Below the pieces are notes generated by a model. The model saw only the letters and a list, made by a program, of their open reading frames with translations. It was not told the DNA's origin and made no database searches. A program made the position numbers and the translations under genes. A stretch of DNA of 64,000 nt from an uncultured Mycoplasmatota bacterium (lineage in GTDB: Bacteria; Bacillota_I; Bacilli_A; RF39; UBA660): contig USFF01000003.1 of the NCBI GenBank assembly GCA_900553835.1, positions 4,183-68,182 on the forward strand, in the 5' to 3' direction. Below are positions 1,697 to 55,432 of this stretch, piece by piece (position 1 is the first letter of the stretch; every line of letters begins with the position of its first letter).

Positions 1697-2449
1697 TTAG
1701 CATATTTTTAGTTTGTCTAAACGCATTTTATCCGCGATTGTTACTATGAATTCAGAGTTTGTTGGTTTTGCTTTGTCTATATCAACTGAATGACCAAATA
1801 TTTCTTCCATTAAATCCCAGTCTCCCCTGTTCCATGATACTTCTATTGCATGTCTTATTGCTCTTTCAACCCTTGTTACACTGGCATTGTATTTTTTACC
1901 AAGTTCTGGATATAGTTCTTTAGTTATCCCGCCTATTAATCCTTCATTTGAATATACCATTGATATTGCATCTCTTATGTATTGATAACCTTTTATATGC
2001 GAAGGTATTCCAAGCTCATGAAGTATTTTTGAAATTGTAACGTGAATTTCATTTGATTTTAGATCTAGTACTTCAGGAACTCTTTCATTACAAACTGATA
2101 TTATTCTTTTTTCTAAGTCTTTTAAGTCAAATGGTTTTAGAACAAAATATCTTACACCAAATTCACTTACGTTTCTAATTGTTTCTTGTTCATTGTAACT
2201 TGTAACTACTATTATATTTCTTTTTAAATTATTTTCTTTTATTTTTTCTAGTACATATATTCCATCTTTTCTAGGCATGATTAAATCTAGTAATACACAA
2301 TCATAATTTGTTTTTTCTATTTTTTCCCATGCTTCTTCTCCATCATAAGCAGTTGCAACTACTTCTATTGTTTCACTTTGTGAAAAGAACTCTTTTAACA
2401 TTTCTACCATTACTTTGTTATCATCTACTACTAAAATCTTTTTCTTCAT
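1697..2449 (-). CDS. spo0A: Sporulation master regulator Spo0A (receiver domain plus Spo0A-specific C-terminal DNA-binding domain)
   Basis: N-terminal receiver (VVDDN...LLDLIMP) and the C-terminal Spo0A signature (IHVTISKILHELGIPSHIKGYQYIRDAI ... EFIVTIADKMRL). Confidence 0.85.
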   Translation of the reverse strand: MKKKILVVDDNKVMVEMLKEFFSQSETIEVVATAYDGEEAWEKIEKTNYDCVLLDLIMPRKDGIYVLEKIKENNLKRNIIVVTSYNEQETIRNVSEFGVRYFVLKPFDLKDLEKRIISVCNERVPEVLDLKSNEIHVTISKILHELGIPSHIKGYQYIRDAISMVYSNEGLIGGITKELYPELGKKYNASVTRVERAIRHAIEVSWNRGDWDLMEEIFGHSVDIDKAKPTNSEFIVTIADKMRLDKLKIC

Positions 2450-4520: not shown

Positions 4521-5114
4521 TTAATTTTGCACTTTATTATTTAAATATTTTTCTATTAATACTTTTTTTATTTTTTCATTTTGTTCTTGTTCATTTTCTA
4601 TTTCTTCTCTTTGTTTTTTTAGTTTATTAGTGTAACTTAGACATTCATTTATTATGGCATCAACTGTATGTATACCTTTTTCTTTAAATAATTTGTTATC
4701 TTCTTTTTTGTATGTGAAAAGTGTTTTATTTACTTTTTCTAAGGAGTAATGATTTAAATTGTAGCAAATATTAAAGCGATTAATCCATTTATCAAATATT
4801 ATGCAGTAATCAGGCAAGTTTTTTCTTGATACGTTGAATTTAGGATTTCTCCTATATGGAAATTCGTATTGTTTTTGACGGTCCATGTATATAACTGGTA
4901 TTTTTTTACCTGTTATTAACTCTCTAACATAAAATGGTGATTCACCTGTAATAAAAAGTATTTCATTATTTTTTGTTATGTATCTACTTTCTATATATAC
5001 CTTGTCTAATCTGTCCGCATTTTTATCACCTAAAAAAGCAATTCCCCCTTCATATATGTTTTTAGTTAAAAGTATTTCTTTGATCGCTTTTAATGTATTT
5101 AGCATGTGCTTCAC
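4521..5114 (-). CDS. Hypothetical 197-aa protein inserted between gap and pgk
   Basis: Clean ORF. Possible Rossmann-like N-terminus (IYEGGIAFLGDKNADRL). No family recognised. Confidence 0.5.
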   Translation of the reverse strand: MKHMLNTLKAIKEILLTKNIYEGGIAFLGDKNADRLDKVYIESRYITKNNEILFITGESPFYVRELITGKKIPVIYMDRQKQYEFPYRRNPKFNVSRKNLPDYCIIFDKWINRFNICYNLNHYSLEKVNKTLFTYKKEDNKLFKEKGIHTVDAIINECLSYTNKLKKQREEIENEQEQNEKIKKVLIEKYLNNKVQN

Positions 5115-8583: not shown

Positions 8584-8614
8584 AAGGTTCTTTTTTAGAG
8601 AACCTTTTTTAAGT
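8584..8614. terminator. Bidirectional rho-independent terminator (GGTTCT-loop-AGAACC flanked by A- and T-runs)
   Basis: Hairpin plus U-tracts, located between the convergent clpP and the 8595..9497 ORF. Confidence 0.5.
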
Positions 8615-9497
8615 AGTATACATTATGTTTTTCTTTTATAGCGCTATATAAAGTACTCTGTAAAAGACTAGCAACTTTTTCTGTTTTTGCTGCGACACTT
8701 TTATTAATTTTGTTAATTAGTTCTTCATCTAGTCTTAATGATGCTGCTTTTATGTGCGCTAAAGAAATCGCTAATTCTTCTAAAGTTTCTATGTCTTCCA
8801 AGTCTTTTTCTGTGTAGTTTATTATTCTTTTAATTTTATCAATTAACATGCTTAGATAAGCATCTTCTTCAAAAGATATACTTCTAAAATATTTAGCACA
8901 TTTATTCATGTAATATTCACCTGTTAGAACTAATTTTTCTGGTTTTCTGTATTTTATGTCTAGCATAGTTCCTTCCACTATGAATGTTATATAGGCAAGT
9001 GTGTATTTGTATTCTATTAGTTTATTTTTTAATTCTTTACTGTTATTTAAATTTGTGAAGTCATGTAGGTAATATAATACTGAGTTTATCATGTCATATG
9101 TTTGAGATAGTCTTATTGTTTCTACAATTTCATCTACCGCTTTGTTTTTTGATGTTGTTATAGTTTGAAGAGTATCTAATCTTTTATTAATACGAAGAAC
9201 TGCTATATCTTCAATGTTTCCTTCTTTAATAGGGTCGTTATTTATTTTGTGCATAAGTCCCATTACTATGTTATCAGCTAAAGTTATTCTTCTATTTGTA
9301 TTTAGTTTATTTATTTCTCCATCAATTACTTCTTCTAAAAATCTATATCTTTTTATTATTTCATCGTATTCTGGAGTGTCTATTTTTTCATTGATTTCTA
9401 AATTAATTAGCATTTCTAGTAATTTATATTCAGTTTTTGAGAAATTTATTAATTCTCTTACTATACCGTTAACAAATAGTATTTCATTATTATCCAT
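8595..9497 (-). CDS. Hypothetical 300-aa protein, predicted all-helical, divergent from a small XRE regulator
   Basis: Long ORF with no recognised motif. Confidence 0.45.
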   Translation of the reverse strand: MDNNEILFVNGIVRELINFSKTEYKLLEMLINLEINEKIDTPEYDEIIKRYRFLEEVIDGEINKLNTNRRITLADNIVMGLMHKINNDPIKEGNIEDIAVLRINKRLDTLQTITTSKNKAVDEIVETIRLSQTYDMINSVLYYLHDFTNLNNSKELKNKLIEYKYTLAYITFIVEGTMLDIKYRKPEKLVLTGEYYMNKCAKYFRSISFEEDAYLSMLIDKIKRIINYTEKDLEDIETLEELAISLAHIKAASLRLDEELINKINKSVAAKTEKVASLLQSTLYSAIKEKHNVYYLKKVL

Positions 9498-9553: not shown

Positions 9554-9585
9554 AAATGTTGATAAATCTAGATTTATCAACATTT
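9554..9585. promoter_or_regulatory. 32-bp perfect palindrome AAATGTTGATAAATCTAGATTTATCAACATTT in the divergent promoter region; candidate operator and/or bidirectional terminator
   Basis: Perfect dyad with 16-bp arms centred on CTAG, followed by TTTTTT. It lies between the starts of the 8595..9497 ORF (minus strand) and the XRE gene (plus strand). Confidence 0.4.
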
Positions 9586-19140: not shown

Positions 19141-20493
19141 TTAATTGTAAACTATTTCATATGGGTTTTCTGGACTTCCATCTCCCTTAGACCATAGGAC
19201 ATCTGTTTTGATTGATGTGACAGGTCTAACCCAGAATGGAGAGATTACAGTATCTAAACTAAATTTACCTGAACCAGTTGAACCGCCTATTTTAAATACC
19301 ATTGTATATTTTGAACTGCTACTTTCGTAAGACCACATAGCCGGACTCATTGTCCAAAAATAATCAGTGCCTGTTGAACTTTCCCCTAGACTATTTTGAT
19401 AATACCAAGCACTTGTATTTTTACTTCCATAGTAGCCTCCTGCATAAGTGATTTCATCATAAGTCATAAGACCAATTGGATATTTTAATTTTGCGTTTTC
19501 ATTTGAAGCACTAAATGCATCTTCTGGAGTAGTACAGTCGTATGTTGGCACTTTTGATCTATAGTAGGCTGCATAATAAAATGTTGATGTTAAACTGTAG
19601 GGAAAATAATCTGCTTTTCCTATGTTCCTATCACTACAATATACTGCAGTTGTGCTTAAATAATCAGCATAATTTATTAATTTGTTAGTTGTAGTACCTG
19701 CTGTATCAGTATAAGTTGTTTGATAAGTTGAATTAGTAATAGTTCTTGTTCCATCGTACCAATTATCTATGTATTGTTTTATTAAACTTTCTACAGTATT
19801 ATTTCTGTTTTTAGCAAGAGTCCCAGATATTCCCCACATGTAACCTGAGTACATAGGATTAGTATCAACACTCCAATAGGCACTTCTTCCTAAATAGCCT
19901 TTTCCATCATGGAAGGTTCCATGAAATAAAAGCCTTATGCTTCCATCTGCATTAGTTCTTATTATTCTCCAGTAGTAGCCCCCAAACTTAACCCAGTTAT
20001 TTGTAGCATTTCCACTAAAATAATATACTGTTGTATCACTTGTGTTATGTACATTCTTTTCTGTTGCTGTATATAATGTTCCAGTGTTTGTTGCCGTAAA
20101 TACGGTGCTGAAATCTGTTCTTGTTTCTACTTTTGGATTATCCTTAAGTATTTTGTTATACAATGTAATTAGTGTTTTTTCTTTAAAATCTATAGTACAA
20201 TACTCTGGCATTTGTATATTAGATAAGCTAACTGTATTATCTTCATTATTATAAGTGGCTATTGTACCATTTTTGCAAGCGATACTATCTATTTCATAAC
20301 CACTTATTAAATCATTATAAGATAAATCTGTTTTTTCTCCATTTAATGTATAAGCAGTTATTCCTGCAGGTTTAGAGAGTATCTTTTCTATTTTAGATAT
20401 TTCTTTTTTACTTTCTTTTTTAGCAGTATTCAAATTAAATGTTAATAACATTAAACTTATTAACAATAAAATTAACATAACATATTTTTTCAT
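19141..20493 (-). CDS. Secreted or membrane-anchored hypothetical protein, strongly Tyr/Thr/Ser/Trp/Asn-rich (450 aa)
   Basis: N-terminal signal/anchor. Highly aromatic composition (GGYYWRIIRTNADGSIRLL, YYAAYYRSK, WYYQNSLG). No family recognised. Confidence 0.5.
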   Translation of the reverse strand: MKKYVMLILLLISLMLLTFNLNTAKKESKKEISKIEKILSKPAGITAYTLNGEKTDLSYNDLISGYEIDSIACKNGTIATYNNEDNTVSLSNIQMPEYCTIDFKEKTLITLYNKILKDNPKVETRTDFSTVFTATNTGTLYTATEKNVHNTSDTTVYYFSGNATNNWVKFGGYYWRIIRTNADGSIRLLFHGTFHDGKGYLGRSAYWSVDTNPMYSGYMWGISGTLAKNRNNTVESLIKQYIDNWYDGTRTITNSTYQTTYTDTAGTTTNKLINYADYLSTTAVYCSDRNIGKADYFPYSLTSTFYYAAYYRSKVPTYDCTTPEDAFSASNENAKLKYPIGLMTYDEITYAGGYYGSKNTSAWYYQNSLGESSTGTDYFWTMSPAMWSYESSSSKYTMVFKIGGSTGSGKFSLDTVISPFWVRPVTSIKTDVLWSKGDGSPENPYEIVYN

Positions 20494-36927: not shown

Positions 36928-36943
36928 TATTTCCCGGGAAATA
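36928..36943. promoter_or_regulatory. Noc-binding-site-type palindrome TATTTCCCGGGAAATA (matches the B. subtilis NBS consensus ATTTCCCGGGAAAT)
   Basis: Perfect 16-bp GC-cored palindrome in an AT-rich intergenic region between jag and mnmE. An identical copy lies at 55141-55156. Confidence 0.5.
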
Positions 36944-39028: not shown

Positions 39029-39267
39029 TTGACTTCTAAAATTATAAACTATAGAATAGTATTTGTCAATTTATTATTTATTAACATATTAACATTTTAT
39101 GTTGATAACTTTATTAACAGGTTGATACTTAAATTTGTTGATAATGTGAATAAGTTGGTTTAAGTGCTGTAAAATGGGATAAAAATGTGTGTACAATCTG
39201 TTAATAAGTCATGTTAATAACATTTTTTTAAAATTTTTACTTTTAAAATAGAATAAAAAGGGTTAAA
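39029..39267. other. oriC region: cluster of DnaA-box-like 9-mers upstream of dnaA (TGTTGATAA at 39100 and 39137, GGTTGATAC at 39120, TGTTAATAA at 39199 and 39212), plus a TTGACT-N17-TAGAAT promoter-like element
   Basis: The boxes are 1-2 mismatches from TGTGGATAA. Gene strand polarity switches here, in the canonical rpmH | dnaA context. Confidence 0.6.
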
Positions 39268-42035: not shown

Positions 42036-42078
42036 ACTCACTTTGTTATTATATCGTCCCAAGAAAGGGGGTATATGG

Positions 42079-42531
42079 ATGTATAATATCAATGATGAGA
42101 CTTTAGCAGTTTTGCCTGTTAATAGAAATAACTGTGAAATACTTGAAAAAAATGCTAATTTAATTATTAAATGTTCATCTTTAAAAGTTATTGAATATAG
42201 TTGTGAGTATTTCGGTGTTCAATATAAAAATAGAGTTAATTGTACTTATAACTTCATAAGAACAAGATATAAGGCTCCAGTTGTAATTGAAGAACATAGT
42301 AGAATTATATTTTTTCCTCTTGTATCACCTAAAAATGAAAATAATCTTTGGATAAGTTATAATAATATTTTAGATTATTGTCCTAGTAAGTGGAAAAAAG
42401 AAACAAAAGTTAAATTTAAAAACGGTGTTTCTATTGATGTTCCAGTCTCATTTTATATTTTTAACTGTCAATATTCAAAAGCAGCAAGACTTTATTCTTC
42501 TTATGAGATAAGAACTTCAAAAAAATGGTAG
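42079..42531 (+). CDS. comK: ComK-family competence transcription factor homologue (150 aa)
   Basis: Start reset to MYNINDE (AAAGGGGG SD 7 nt upstream). Blocks recalled from B. subtilis ComK align: AVLP, SC.FFG..Y..R...TY, K.P......I.FFP..S......WIS, KF.NG....VP.S...FN.QY..A.L. Confidence 0.65.
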   Translation: MYNINDETLAVLPVNRNNCEILEKNANLIIKCSSLKVIEYSCEYFGVQYKNRVNCTYNFIRTRYKAPVVIEEHSRIIFFPLVSPKNENNLWISYNNILDYCPSKWKKETKVKFKNGVSIDVPVSFYIFNCQYSKAARLYSSYEIRTSKKW

Positions 42532-45646: not shown

Positions 45647-48226
45647 ATGAATGATGATTTAGATAAACTACTTGAGAGAGCAAATGAGCTTGAAAATGAA
45701 GAAAAAGTACCTACTTTGTCTTCTGATAACTTAAATCAAGTACTTAATGATAATAAAGAAGAAAGTTCAACTTACTTTGGTGGAGAATTTCATGAAAGAG
45801 ATAAGCTTTCTGTAAATAATATTGTAGATGAAGTGGAGACATCATTTTTGGATTATTCTATGAGTGTTATAAAAGCGCGTGCTTTGCCTGATTTAAGAGA
45901 TGGTCTTAAGCCAGTTCACAGAAGAATATTATGGAGTATGTTTGAAAGCGGTTATACACCTGATAAGCCACATAAGAAGTGCGCTACTACGGTTGGTTAT
46001 GTAATAGGACATTATCATCCACATGGAGATACTTCGGTTTATGATGCAATGGTAAGACTTGCACAGGACTTTAACCAAAGATATACTTTAGTTGATGGCC
46101 ATGGAAATTTTGGTAATATTGAAGGCGATAGTGCAGCGGCATATCGTTATACTGAATCTAGACTTTCTAAAATTAGTTTAGAGTTACTTCGTGATATTAA
46201 TAAGAATACAGTTGATATGGAAGATAACTTTGATGTTACTAAAAAGGAACCAAAAGTTTTACCTTCAAGATACCCTAATATTTTAGTTAATGGTTCTATG
46301 GGGATCGCTGTTGGTATGGCAACAAATATTCCACCACATAATTTGGGTGAAGTGATAGATGGTTGTATTGCTTATATAGATAATCCAGAAATTGATACTT
46401 TAGGTTTAATGCAATATGTTAAAGGTCCTGATTTTCCTACTGGCGGTGTTATTTTAGGTAATTCTGGAATAAAACAAGCTTATGAAACTGGGCGTGGAAG
46501 TATTACTATTAGAAGTAGAGCAACTATTGAAGAAGTAAAGGGACATCCAACTATAATTATTACTGAAGTTCCATATGGCGTTAATACAATGGAGTTAAAA
46601 AATAAAGTAGCAGAGCTTGTTCACAATAAAATTATAGAAGGAATTACTGATTATCATACTGATCTGAAGAATGGTGTTAAAATTACTATTACATTAAAAA
46701 AAGATGCAAATGCGCAAGTTATTTTAAATAACTTATATAAGCACACACAATTTCAAATTAACTATAGTATTATTTTCTTGGTGCTTGATGGGCTTACTCC
46801 TAAGACTTTGCCTTTAAAAAGTATAATTAGTAAGTATATTGATCATCAGAAAGAAGTAATCTATAGAAGAACTAAATTTGACCTTGCTAAAAGTGAAAAT
46901 AGGGTACATATTTTAGAGGGTTATAAAATAGCATTAGATAATATTGACGAGGTAGTTAGCATTATTAGAAATGCAGCGGATGACGATGAAGCCAGAAATA
47001 AACTTATTAATAGATTTGGATTGACTGTTATACAAGCTGATAGTATATTAGAGTTAAAATTAAAACGTTTAACAGGTCTAGAGAGAAATAAGATTGAAGA
47101 AGAGTTATCAACATTATTAAAACTTATTGATGAATTAAGAGCAATTTTAGCTGATGAAAAATTAGTTCTAGATATAATAAAAAGAGAAATGGCTGACATT
47201 AAAAACAAATATTCAGATGATAGAAGAACAACAATCGATATGACTGCTATTGATTATATAGAAGATGAATCATTGATACCAGAAGAAGATATAATTGTAA
47301 CCATAAGCAACAAGAATTATATTAAACGCATGACAACTGATAATTATAGGACTCAAAGTAGAGGTGGAGTAGGAATTAAAGGTATGACAACTAATGAGGA
47401 AGATTTTGCTAATCAGATGGTTAATTTATCAACACACGATTATTTACTTTTCTTCACTAATAAAGGTAAAGTTTATAGATTAAAGGGTTATGAGATACCT
47501 GAATATTCTCGTACTTCTAAAGGTTTACCAATTATTAACTTAATTCAAATAGAAAAGGATGAAACAGTAAGTGCAGTTGTTAAAGTAGAAAAAGGAAACG
47601 CATATAAATACTTCGTGTTTGGTACAAAAAATGGTACAGTCAAGAGGACTTTAATATCTGATTTTGATAATATACGTCAAAAAGGTAAGATAGCTATTAC
47701 TTTAAGAGAAGATGATGAGCTTAACTCAGTTAAAAAGTCTACTGGAGAAGATTATATAATTATGTGCTCTTCTAATGGTAGAATGGTTAGATATAATGAA
47801 AATGAAATTCGTGTTATGGGAAGGACAGCTGCAGGTGTTAGAGGAATTAATTTAGGTAATGATATATGTGTTGGAACTGAAGTTATCAACAGTAATCAAG
47901 AAATTTTAGTGGTTACAGAAAAAGGTTATGGCAAAAAGACAGCAGTTTCAGAATATAGAGAAACTAAGAGAGGTAGTAAAGGTGTAAGAACTATAAACAT
48001 TACTGAAAAGAATGGTAAAATAGTAGGATTTAAAGCTGTATATAATGATACTGATCTGATGATTATAACTAATTTGGGTATTATTATAAGACTAGATATG
48101 GCATCTATTTCTACAATGGGAAGAGTTACCCAAGGTGTTAAATTAATTAATCTTAAAGAAAATAATATTGTGGCTTCGATATCTGTAGTTAATAAATCTG
48201 AAGAAGAAACTACTGATGAAGAATAG
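45647..48226 (+). CDS. gyrA: DNA gyrase subunit A
   Basis: Active-site region AAYRYTE, QRD-region motifs, C-terminal beta-pinwheel repeats; 859 aa. Confidence 0.95.
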   Translation: MNDDLDKLLERANELENEEKVPTLSSDNLNQVLNDNKEESSTYFGGEFHERDKLSVNNIVDEVETSFLDYSMSVIKARALPDLRDGLKPVHRRILWSMFESGYTPDKPHKKCATTVGYVIGHYHPHGDTSVYDAMVRLAQDFNQRYTLVDGHGNFGNIEGDSAAAYRYTESRLSKISLELLRDINKNTVDMEDNFDVTKKEPKVLPSRYPNILVNGSMGIAVGMATNIPPHNLGEVIDGCIAYIDNPEIDTLGLMQYVKGPDFPTGGVILGNSGIKQAYETGRGSITIRSRATIEEVKGHPTIIITEVPYGVNTMELKNKVAELVHNKIIEGITDYHTDLKNGVKITITLKKDANAQVILNNLYKHTQFQINYSIIFLVLDGLTPKTLPLKSIISKYIDHQKEVIYRRTKFDLAKSENRVHILEGYKIALDNIDEVVSIIRNAADDDEARNKLINRFGLTVIQADSILELKLKRLTGLERNKIEEELSTLLKLIDELRAILADEKLVLDIIKREMADIKNKYSDDRRTTIDMTAIDYIEDESLIPEEDIIVTISNKNYIKRMTTDNYRTQSRGGVGIKGMTTNEEDFANQMVNLSTHDYLLFFTNKGKVYRLKGYEIPEYSRTSKGLPIINLIQIEKDETVSAVVKVEKGNAYKYFVFGTKNGTVKRTLISDFDNIRQKGKIAITLREDDELNSVKKSTGEDYIIMCSSNGRMVRYNENEIRVMGRTAAGVRGINLGNDICVGTEVINSNQEILVVTEKGYGKKTAVSEYRETKRGSKGVRTINITEKNGKIVGFKAVYNDTDLMIITNLGIIIRLDMASISTMGRVTQGVKLINLKENNIVASISVVNKSEEETTDEE

Positions 48227-48229
48227 CAA

Positions 48230-48781
48230 TGTTCCACGTGGAACATTTGGAGATTATATGATAATCTCCTTTTTTTATATATTTTTTGTTAAAGACTAAA
48301 TTTATTTTGAAATTTTGTGTGTTAAGTTTATTGTTTTTTTATAAAATGTTTAAATGCAACAATTTAACAATGTTCCACGTGGAACATTGTTAAAAATCAA
48401 AATAAAACTTCGAATTAAAATATGTTAATTTTTTTTGCTGATTTTGGTTAACATATAAATAATTTTTATCGTTTTTAAAGTTAAGCATTATAGAATGTTT
48501 CACGTGAAACATTCTATTTAAACATTTTAATGTTAAATTTTATATTAAAATGTTCTCTTATTTTTTTAATAGTTCAATTTAATGTTCCACGTGGAACATT
48601 AAATAATTACTATTATTTATAAAATTGTTTTTTTTTATAATTTTTATAGTTATTAACTTTCATGTATTAAAATCTGCTATGATTGTCACTTAATAATTAT
48701 AATTATAAGCATTTATTTCTGAAATAGTATAATTTTAAGTTATTAACATTTTTTTGCAAAACTTATGTTCCACGTGAAACA
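48230..48781. repeat. Array of five parS (ParB/Spo0J centromere) palindromes in the non-coding region downstream of gyrA. Cores at 48230-48245, 48371-48386, 48496-48511, 48583-48598 and 48766-48781.
   Basis: Copies 1, 2 and 4 read TGTTCCACGTGGAACA, copy 3 reads TGTTTCACGTGAAACA, copy 5 reads TGTTCCACGTGAAACA. All match the parS consensus TGTTNCACGTGAAACA. The flanks extend to perfect palindromes of 20-30 bp (for example 48364-48393, 30 bp). Confidence 0.75.
48249..48276 (+). terminator. Rho-independent terminator of gyrA (GGAGATTAT-ATG-ATAATCTCC followed by T7)
   Basis: Perfect 9-bp stem, 3-nt loop, U-tract; 23 nt after the gyrA stop. Confidence 0.65.
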
Positions 48782-48841
48782 TTAGATAGATTTTAAACTA
48801 TAAAAATTGATTGTAAGTTGTTTATTTGATATAATCTAGTT

Positions 48842-48919
48842 GTGCAACAAATGGCATAGAAACAGGTCAGGACTGGAAAGTAGCAGCTTTAATATTAACC
48901 ATTTGTGTGCACTTTTTTT
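48842..48919 (+). ncRNA. ffs: Small signal-recognition-particle RNA (4.5S/scRNA-type, about 75 nt) with its own TTGATT-N17-TATAAT promoter at 48807-48835
   Basis: A single long hairpin. The 5' GUGCAACAAAUGG pairs with the 3' CCAUUUGUGUGCAC. The apical CAGGUCAGGACUGGAAAGUAGCAGC matches SRP RNA domain IV (E. coli CAGGUCAGGUCCGGAAGGAAGCAGC), with a compensatory ACU/AGU helix closing the GGAA tetraloop. A U7 tail follows. Confidence 0.55.
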
Positions 48920-48930
48920 AAGGAGATAAC

Positions 48931-49341
48931 ATGAATAGTGAAGATAAATATTATAAAATTTTATTTAAATTAGCTTTAAAAGCTTATAAAAAAAATGAAG
49001 TACCGGTGGCATCTATAGTGGTTAGAAATGGTGAAATTATTTCAAAGGCTTATAATAAGCGCTATAATACGCATAATCCACTAAATCATGCTGAAATAAT
49101 TGCTATTAAAACTGCATGCAAACGATTGAAAACGTGGAAATTAGATGATTGTGATATTTATGTAACTTTAAAACCTTGTAAAATGTGCTGTGAAGTAATT
49201 AAACAGTCTAGGATACATAATGTTTATTTTTTTACTGATAATACAAAAGATATTAACTTTAAAACTAATTTTATTAAATTAGGAGATAAAGACAAAACGT
49301 TTTCAAAGTTATTAACAATTTTTTTTGAAAAATTAAGATAA
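48931..49341 (+). CDS. tadA: tRNA-specific adenosine deaminase TadA
   Basis: CDA-fold zinc motifs HAE (NHAEIIAI) and PCKMC; 136 aa. Confidence 0.85.
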   Translation: MNSEDKYYKILFKLALKAYKKNEVPVASIVVRNGEIISKAYNKRYNTHNPLNHAEIIAIKTACKRLKTWKLDDCDIYVTLKPCKMCCEVIKQSRIHNVYFFTDNTKDINFKTNFIKLGDKDKTFSKLLTIFFEKLR

Positions 49342-54568: not shown

Positions 54569-55432
54569 ATGATACAAAGAAGTTATTTAGATAGTAAATC
54601 AAATTGTTATATAATTCCTACACCAATTGGAAATATGGAAGATATTACTTTGAGAGCAATTAGGCTTCTAAAGAAAGTTGATGCTATTTTTGCTGAAGAT
54701 ACTAGGGTTACTCAAAATTTACTTACTAATTTAAAAATTAAAAATAAAATTTATCAGTGTCAAAAATTTAATGAAATAAAAGCTAGCAAACTTATGATTA
54801 AATTGCTTAATGAAGGCAAGAATATAGCTGTTGTAACAGATAGAGGGACTCCATTAATAAGTGATCCTGGGTATGTGGCACTTAAAAGTGTTGTTAAAGA
54901 AGGTTATAATATTATTGCTTTGCCAGGCGCTAGTGCTTTACTCCCGGCAATTAATATGTCTAATTTAGATCAAGACAAATTTTTATTTTATGGATTTTTA
55001 GATTCTAAAGAATCGGCATTAATTAAAGAACTTGAAAGCATAAAAGATTTAAAGTTTACAATTATTTTATATGAAGCACCACATAGACTTTATAAAACTT
55101 TACAAAATGTCTTAAAAATATTGGGAAATAGGCAGATTAGTATTTCCCGGGAAATAACTAAACTTCATGAAGAGGTTTTTAGGGGAAGCGTTTTGGAAGC
55201 TTTGGATAACTATAAAGGTGATGTTAAAGGTGAAATAGTTATTGTAATAGAAAAAGGAAATACTACAAATAATATTGATGATGCTTATTTAAAATGTGTA
55301 GAACTTGTTTCTTTAGGAATGTCTAGTAAAAATGCTATTAAGTATATTTCTAGAGAATTGGGCGTTAGTAAAAATGAACTTTATGATATGTATGAGGTGA
55401 AGAAAAATGAAACTGATAGTGGGATTAGGTAA
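54569..55432 (+). CDS. rsmI: 16S rRNA (cytidine1402-2'-O)-methyltransferase RsmI
   Basis: Start reset to MIQRSYLDSK (GAGAGGTGA SD). TPIGN motif; tetrapyrrole-methylase fold. Confidence 0.85.
   Translation: MIQRSYLDSKSNCYIIPTPIGNMEDITLRAIRLLKKVDAIFAEDTRVTQNLLTNLKIKNKIYQCQKFNEIKASKLMIKLLNEGKNIAVVTDRGTPLISDPGYVALKSVVKEGYNIIALPGASALLPAINMSNLDQDKFLFYGFLDSKESALIKELESIKDLKFTIILYEAPHRLYKTLQNVLKILGNRQISISREITKLHEEVFRGSVLEALDNYKGDVKGEIVIVIEKGNTTNNIDDAYLKCVELVSLGMSSKNAIKYISRELGVSKNELYDMYEVKKNETDSGIR
55141..55156. promoter_or_regulatory. Second copy of the Noc-binding-site-type palindrome TATTTCCCGGGAAATA, inside the rsmI coding sequence (codons I-S-R-E-I)
   Basis: Identical 16-mer to 36928-36943. The GC-rich core CCCGGG is rare in this AT-rich sequence. 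Confidence 0.45.

Follow-up and report, generated by a model that had tools for sequence, protein, structure and literature searches.

The 64-kb window analyzed here, 64,000 nucleotides of contig USFF01000003.1 from an uncultured Mycoplasmatota bacterium, carries in the gap between gyrA and tadA a tight array of five parS sites, the 16-bp palindromes associated with the ParB (Spo0J) protein family. The neighbors of the array are gyrA, ffs and tadA, and no parAB operon lies alongside it. All five sites are exact matches to the parS consensus TGTTNCACGTGNAACA and together span 552 bp (48230-48781), with start-to-start distances of 141, 125, 87 and 183 bp; sites 2 to 4 are contained within ~500 bp of non-coding DNA. 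A first-pass annotation of this DNA had placed five such palindromes directly after gyrA, and their sequences are those it gave: three copies of TGTTCCACGTGGAACA and one each of TGTTTCACGTGAAACA and TGTTCCACGTGAAACA. Its description of the roughly 700-bp gap as gene-free has to be corrected, since ffs (Rfam RF00169) lies within the 704 bp that separate gyrA from tadA, leaving ~611 bp of truly non-coding sequence. The excess of sites is evident from the numbers, as 0.07 matches to TGTTNCACGTGNAACA are expected by chance in the 64-kb window and five were reached in none of 100 shuffles. Beyond the five, no further match with two or fewer mismatches occurs in the window, and no parS was found in two 10-kb extensions beyond its ends.

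The array is close to the replication origin, which lies at ~39 kb, because the sign flip of the GC skew (~38-39 kb of the window), the DnaA-box-like sites and dnaA are all located there; rnpA and dnaA are divergent at the same position. This puts the array in the right replichore at the distance from the DnaA-box cluster, ~9 kb, that had been claimed for it. At least eight human-gut metagenome assemblies, independent of one another, contain the five sites in identical order and spacing, and the array is therefore not an artefact of assembly. The gap is 98-100% identical among the four assemblies that span it entirely, and in strain L154 (L-numbers are locus labels throughout), whose gap is 98% identical, the sole change seen within a parS core affects the degenerate N position of site 3. 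The genome has 27% G+C and encodes Spo0A, SpoIIR, SpoIID, GerQ, ComK and the RNA polymerase delta subunit.

For comparison with relatives, 10 kb on each side of dnaA were taken from 17 related species. Among public genomes, those nearest to the window belong to Clostridium sp. CAG:628 and to metagenome-assembled “uncultured Bacilli”, whose DnaA proteins are 66-82% identical to that of the window; orthologous genes reside on contigs of up to ~1.2 Mb, so that the genome is small (roughly 1.2 Mb). All relatives' loci that reach the end of gyrA (DnaA 70-82% identical) have an exact parS array at this place, with 4-9 sites: six in L007, eight exact and one with a single mismatch in L008, nine in L009, and four each in L010, L013 and L015, the last with an additional single-mismatch site. 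L016 combines four exact sites with two carrying one mismatch. In L018, L021 and L022 the array is made of tandem 53-bp units and is cut off by the end of the contig. Elsewhere in the relatives' loci no parS-like sites were detected, except for one match with two mismatches in L023. When the gap sequences of five species are aligned, conservation is essentially limited to islands at the parS cores, at the ffs promoter and in the ffs gene, and the rest is unalignable. Sites are also gained between close relatives, L040 having one more than L007. Since the cores are conserved amid drifting DNA and close relatives gain sites, comparison of the sequences indicates that the parS sites are kept by selection in a dynamic array and are not a relic.

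Tight parS arrays are not confined to this lineage. A scan of public metagenome contigs for three exact parS sites 95-125 bp apart returned at least 120 loci with G+C contents of 0.21-0.70 and 3-27 sites per array. In these loci, as in the window, the sites are spaced 40-290 bp apart within one non-coding stretch. Among the matches listed, mid- and high-GC loci with identifiable neighbors usually have the array directly beside soj-spo0J, which ties arrays of this kind to ParB. About 25 low-GC loci among the matches listed have the array beside gyrA, ffs and/or tadA, and their GyrA proteins are 53-91% identical to that of the window; ffs adjoins the array in 10 of 11 loci tested. The order gyrA-array-ffs-tadA is shared by the window, L076, L136 and L078, while L132 has gyrA-ffs-array-tadA and L104 has gyrA-ffs-tadA-array. 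Some arrays are strictly repetitive, such as those of L076 (10438-11385), with 22.6 units of 42 bp and one parS per unit, and of L018 (19026-19200), with tandem 53-bp units again carrying one parS each. Short metagenome contigs often stop inside tandem arrays, and copy numbers taken from assemblies may therefore be too low. Clustered parS sites are known in several species, and reviews treat the cause of clustering as an open question (PMC7333895 among them). The first-pass annotation had regarded the tight packing as unusual, a view that these loci and the reviews do not bear out: tight parS arrays are widespread and already known, and the one in the window is an ordinary case. What is distinctive here is the lineage-wide location of the array away from any par operon.

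Table 1. Coordinates of the parS array, its borders and other origin-region features in the 64-kb window.
Feature	Position	Strand	Remarks
parS1	48230..48245	.	TGTTCCACGTGGAACA; perfect palindrome 48228-48247, 20 bp; between gyrA stop and gyrA terminator
parS2	48371..48386	.	TGTTCCACGTGGAACA; perfect palindrome 48363-48394, 32 bp; single-stranded DNA hairpin -12.7 kcal/mol, z = -7.0
parS3	48496..48511	.	TGTTTCACGTGAAACA; perfect palindrome 48490-48517, 28 bp
parS4	48583..48598	.	TGTTCCACGTGGAACA; perfect palindrome 48577-48604, 28 bp
parS5	48766..48781	.	TGTTCCACGTGAAACA; perfect palindrome of 18 bp; halves unlike at N positions; 3' end 25 bp upstream of ffs -35 hexamer
gyrA	45647..48226	+	Upstream border of array; NCBIfam gyrA equivalog, 1085-1113 bits
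Probable gyrA intrinsic terminator	48249..48276	+	Hairpin and T-run, just past parS1
ffs promoter-like site	48807-48835	+	TTGATT, 17-nt spacer, TG, TATAAT; strong; conserved in relatives
ffs, signal recognition particle RNA gene	48838-48918	+	Rfam RF00169, 48.6 bits; downstream border of array; conserved in relatives
tadA, next protein-coding gene	48931..49341	+	Best match NCBIfam TadA, 83.6 bits vs cutoff 150; deaminase Pfam families
DnaA-box-like cluster	39100..39153	.	Just upstream of dnaA; origin reference point
dnaA	39268-40695		Basis for origin placement together with DnaA boxes and GC skew
Noc-type ParB-family gene, 368 aa	31740..32846	-	Directly after rsmG; Pfam ParB_N and HTH_ParB
NBS 1, exact 16 bp	36928..36943	.	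TATTTCCCGGGAAATA; jag-mnmE gap; kept there in nearly all relatives
NBS 2, exact 16 bp	55141..55156	.	TATTTCCCGGGAAATA; inside TP_methylase (rsmI-like) open reading frame
NBS, Noc-binding site.

Candidate readers of the sites were sought with Pfam on 40 open reading frames (ORFs) of the window, comprising most of those of at least 90 aa left of oriC and the ParA-sized ones right of it, and with NCBIfam on five. In addition, tblastn was run with B. subtilis (Bacillus subtilis) Soj and Spo0J and with the Noc-type protein of the window, against the window and its 10-kb extensions at each end (~84 kb in total) and against the relatives' and metagenome loci. The sole ParB-family gene in the ~84 kb around oriC is the Noc-type one (Table 1), and the same holds for the origin regions of the relatives. 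Its product scores 285 bits with the NCBIfam Noc model (cutoff 315) and 163 bits with parB_part; among solved structures Noc is the best match (201 bits), ParB/Spo0J structures reaching 117-164 bits, and the CAG:628 orthologue is named “nucleoid occlusion protein” by NCBI. Binding specificity within this family is set by four residues, R173/T179/A184/G201 in ParB and Q/K/K/R in Noc (Jalal et al. 2020, PMC7383237), of which R173 and G201 are invariant in ParB; in Noc-binding sites (NBS), adenine 1 is read by Q173 and cytosine 6 by R201, given one lysine at position 179 or 184 (PMC7383237). The protein of the window has Q173, K179, N184 and R201, and all relatives have Q-K-(N/S)-R. The model scores, the structure matches and the name of the orthologue mark the protein as Noc-type, and from its residues it is predicted to be NBS-specific and an unlikely reader of the parS array. 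Orthologues of its gene are carried by public contigs of 1.18 and 1.21 Mb.

The binding sites expected for such a protein are present as well. The 16-bp NBS sequence TATTTCCCGGGAAATA occurs in two exact copies in the window, where none is expected by chance. It also fits the two base differences between parS and NBS described by Jalal et al. (PMC7383237). The five parS sites carry G at position 1 and A at position 6 of each half and thus do not qualify as NBS. The exact, conserved NBS show the presence of a separate Noc/NBS system. The Noc-type protein itself is unusual in its architecture: it begins 7 residues before the conserved ParB_N core, a short N-terminus common to the relatives, and has neither the N-terminal membrane-targeting amphipathic helix of Noc nor the ParA-stimulating peptide of ParB. 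Ahead of its C-terminal domain it carries a ~160-aa insertion rich in E, P and K.

Taken together, we regard it as highly probable that the five palindromes are functional parS and that together they provide a compact centromere, a zone ~9 kb to the right of oriC where a canonical ParB/Spo0J encoded elsewhere loads, serving mainly SMC loading and origin organization. By analogy with studied systems, each 16-bp site would be recognized by ParB dimers, which would bind cytidine triphosphate, close to sliding clamps and spread outward into flanking DNA. With five sites packed into 550 bp, the rate of loading at a single locus would be multiplied and one dense partition complex would form, which would act as an entry point for SMC-ScpAB and for organization of the origin domain rather than being carried by a ParA motor. 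The true ParB would be encoded elsewhere in the ~1.2-Mb genome, with the Noc-type paralogue reading the separate NBS. An SMC-loading role like that in Staphylococcus aureus and Streptococcus pneumoniae is favored because there is no ParA near the origin: no ParA/Soj was found by tblastn in the ~84 kb or in the relatives' origin regions, nor by Pfam in the scanned ORFs. Lacking a ParA, the origin region does not hold a complete ParABS system.

Several observations weigh against this reading. No canonical ParB was found in the ~84 kb, nor in any relative up to 10 kb from dnaA, in line with the earlier statement that the window has neither a parS-type ParB nor a ParA; tblastn and Pfam detect a single ParB-family gene in the window, the Noc-type one. 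The identity of the sites to parS, their excess over chance, their proximity to the origin, their conservation and turnover across the lineage and the lack of ParA and canonical ParB nearby are observed. The reader of the array is inferred, and so are the proposed ParB binding, clamp loading and SMC recruitment and the existence and location of a parB gene. No SMC-ScpAB genes were seen in the window, and ParA as well as further parS sites may lie elsewhere in the genome. Finally, no known ParB mechanism needs extended palindromes around the cores, and such extensions are an unexpected feature of the array.

Each core is embedded in a longer perfect palindrome of 18 to 32 bp (Table 1), reaching 38 bp in relatives, and the flanking arms of these palindromes are unlike from copy to copy. 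Such embedding is also seen in L007-L010 and in many of L029-L148. Over 32 sites of the window and its four nearest relatives the mean extension is 5.7 bp per side, whereas ordinary palindromes of 8 bp from these loci, like composition alone, give ~0.5-0.7 bp. Perfect palindromes of at least 20 bp in the 64-kb window comprise the four at parS sites and only two others. With an extension about tenfold over expectation and just two other palindromes of this length in 64 kb, chance palindromes in AT-rich DNA were rejected as an explanation. Comparison of the sister species L008 and L009 reveals C:G to T:A double changes at three orthologous sites, each leaving the arms complementary, where a rough estimate under independence predicts ~0.3-0.5 compensatory events for this pair; a fourth such double change distinguishes L120 from L030. 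The effect extends beyond this lineage, as seen in 824 unique arrayed sites, collected by exact pattern match and drawn mostly from the at least 120 metagenome loci, together with the window and its relatives. Extensions of at least 5 bp were found at 66 of 194 sites in arrays with G+C below 0.25, at 29 of 321 between 0.25 and 0.45 and at 24 of 309 above 0.45, with fewer than one expected in each G+C class. Arrays of more distant relatives have almost no flank extension.

Calculated for single-stranded DNA, the hairpins formed by the long parS palindromes have folding energies of -9 to -13 kcal/mol. A T-run follows 8 of 66 long palindromes, against a background of 9%, and their interpretation as general terminators was discarded for this lack of enrichment. 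A T-run comes directly behind the first post-gyrA parS palindrome in L008 (19015-19050), L009 (18999-19034), L010 (18922-18960), L120 (5220-5255) and L030 (3352-3385), and in these five relatives that palindrome may double as the intrinsic terminator of gyrA. The window differs from them in having a separate hairpin terminator after parS1.

It is tempting to speculate, although we hold this only tentatively and consider it more doubtful than probable, that here and across many lineages arrayed parS sites originate, or are preserved, as extended perfect palindromes reaching 38 bp, with flanks that are unique yet remain self-complementary even where compensatory double changes occur, either through hairpin-driven mutation or through a selected hairpin or cruciform state. 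Of the two, the mutational explanation is favored over a selected structural role. Strand switching on a hairpin template could bring a strongly selected 16-bp palindromic core to perfection and lengthen it; alternatively, new sites could arise by inverted copying of a half-site together with its flank. A literature search found no treatment of extended parS palindromes or cruciforms. If true, the idea would mean that hairpin mutation or selected structure shapes centromere arrays and drives the fast gain and loss of sites.

These palindromes raise the question of whether structure comes first, i.e., whether the elements are hairpins or cruciforms, REP-like (repetitive extragenic palindromic) elements or terminators whose match to parS is secondary. 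The enclosing perfect palindromes (18-32 bp in the window, as long as 38 bp in relatives, with an extension of 5.7 against ~0.5 bp per side), the compensatory double changes in the flanks of orthologous sites, and the T-run after the first palindrome of some relatives, resembling a gyrA terminator, all speak for such a view. We nevertheless judge it very improbable: the 14 specified parS positions are exact in all five copies (and in the 824 sites, themselves chosen by exact match) while the flanks vary, which marks the parS core as the conserved part; many arrays adjoin soj-spo0J; T-runs are not enriched after long palindromes; and the arrays of distant relatives are nearly devoid of flank extension. 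Sites that had lost their function altogether, as a decaying relic of a former ParABS system, would agree with the failure to find parAB near the origin. To this possibility we give hardly any credence, as all sites are exact and arrays persist down to 53% GyrA identity, sites are gained in close relatives (L040 compared with L007, and L008/L009 with eight and nine exact sites), and the neutral AT-rich DNA around them has become unalignable.

The remaining alternatives concern who reads the sites and to what end. The Noc-type ParB paralogue could be the only ParB-family protein of the lineage, binding both NBS and the parS array, which would require a broader specificity than predicted or a ParB role assumed after loss of spo0J. 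It is the sole ParB-family gene in ~84 kb and in every relative's origin region, and its product, being devoid of the membrane-targeting helix that defines Noc function, may not act as a classical Noc. However, Q173 and R201 are NBS-specifying, the dual-specificity variants recovered in a deep mutational scan have C, T or S as residue 201 in most cases, and known parS binders have invariant R173 and G201 (PMC7383237); the exact conserved NBS, moreover, represent targets of the protein's own. S. aureus, with ParB-parS and Noc yet no ParA, illustrates that the absence of soj next to noc need not mean the absence of ParB, and a takeover of the array by the Noc-type protein is, on balance, improbable. 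It is also conceivable that local gene regulation is primary, with ParB at the sites modulating the ffs promoter, read-through from gyrA or expression of tadA-dnaX-ybaB-recR, and chromosome organization secondary. The placement of parS5 just upstream of the ffs -35 hexamer and of parS1 between the gyrA stop codon and terminator would suit such a role, and ParB located at or spreading from parS is described as affecting nearby genes in Pseudomonas aeruginosa and S. pneumoniae (PMC4488948 among the sources). Nevertheless, members of the lineage differ in where the array stands with respect to ffs and tadA, at odds with a fixed operator-promoter geometry, site number ranges from 4 to 23, and an operator would need just one site, all of which makes a primarily regulatory function distinctly improbable. 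A loading zone for a ParB encoded elsewhere thus stays our preferred interpretation.

In this interpretation, the ParB loading zone of a group of uncultured small-genome gut Bacilli, the relatives of Clostridium sp. CAG:628, is placed at a gyrA-ffs-tadA landmark, which may serve as a target for the interpretation of Hi-C and chromatin immunoprecipitation data and as an origin-region marker in metagenome-assembled genomes. The lineage also offers natural variation bearing on why parS sites cluster, with arrays of 4 to 23 sites, either irregular or strictly tandem, and site gain between close relatives. The location of the array apart from parAB, combined with a Noc-type protein without a membrane helix, suggests a pared-down system of origin organization. 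By itself, the finding overturns nothing.

Other features of the window deserve brief mention. At 9554-9585 lies a 32-bp perfect palindrome, AAATGTTGATAAATCTAGATTTATCAACATTT, composed of two inverted DnaA-box-like TTATCAACA motifs and situated between whiA and a 300-aa ORF without a family match, beside a small HTH_3 gene; it may represent an operator or a DnaA-box pair outside oriC. The spo0A gene (1697-2449, minus strand) is located between tpi and gpmI, within an otherwise typical gap-pgk-tpi-gpmI glycolytic cluster, and a ComK-family ORF (42043-42531, plus strand) lies between dnaN and recF, an arrangement shared with the relatives L001 and L149. Three minus-strand ORFs, at 19141-20493 (450 aa), 8595-9497 (300 aa) and 4521-5114 (197 aa), have no Pfam match, and the first of these has no NCBIfam match either.

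Comparison with known systems places the array between several familiar arrangements. In B. subtilis, ~10 parS sites are scattered singly and mostly inside genes, and soj-spo0J is located next to noc. The window shares with it identical 16-bp parS and NBS sequences, parS5 (TGTTCCACGTGAAACA) matching the B. subtilis parS consensus, and the ParB/Noc specificity code applies to both. It differs in that the sites are arrayed, soj-spo0J is missing beside the Noc-type gene, and the Noc-type protein is devoid of the N-terminal amphipathic helix.

A concentration of many ParB-type palindromes in one short non-coding stretch is also seen in plasmid sopC. In F, sopC is built of 12 units of 43 bp in tandem, and every unit contains an inverted repeat. 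Tandem arrays of this type occur in the relatives L076 (22.6 × 42 bp) and L018 (53-bp units) and not in the window, where a sopC-like tandem structure was rejected: no tandem repeat covers the array, the flanks are unique and the spacing is irregular. Again unlike sopC, the array of the window has no adjacent par operon, and its sites correspond to the chromosomal parS consensus and not to a plasmid-specific sequence. Of the dedicated, plasmid-like centromere that the first-pass annotation had envisaged, the concentration of selected, origin-proximal parS sites in one gap is retained, whereas the likeness to sopC-type tandem units is not.

Canonical parS sites are likewise concentrated near the origin in P. 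aeruginosa (parS1-4) and, at 20-23 sites around oriC, in Streptomyces coelicolor and Listeria innocua. In all three, however, the sites are spread over a wider region than in the window, and some P. aeruginosa sites precede different genes (PA0011, PA0013), unlike the single gap occupied here.

The closest parallels are found among Bacilli without ParA. In S. aureus, the parB gene lies far from noc. This species has Noc, ParB and five origin-proximal parS sites but no ParA, and its ParB-parS mainly serves to load SMC-ScpAB and to bring the chromosome arms into alignment, starting from the origin region (PMC12479847). Both S. pneumoniae and S. aureus are listed as organisms without ParA (PMC7333895), and S. 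pneumoniae, with four parS sites and no ParA, is similar to the situation proposed here. Two differences separate the window from S. aureus: the five parS of the latter are separate loci, one of them 47 kb from the origin, whereas all sites detected here fall within 552 bp, and the cognate ParB was not found in the ~84 kb around the origin. The similarities are nonetheless extensive, as both are Bacilli with canonical 16-bp parS near oriC, a Noc-type paralogue beside rsmG and no ParA found near the origin, and by analogy the array would be expected to play the same SMC-loading and origin-organizing role.

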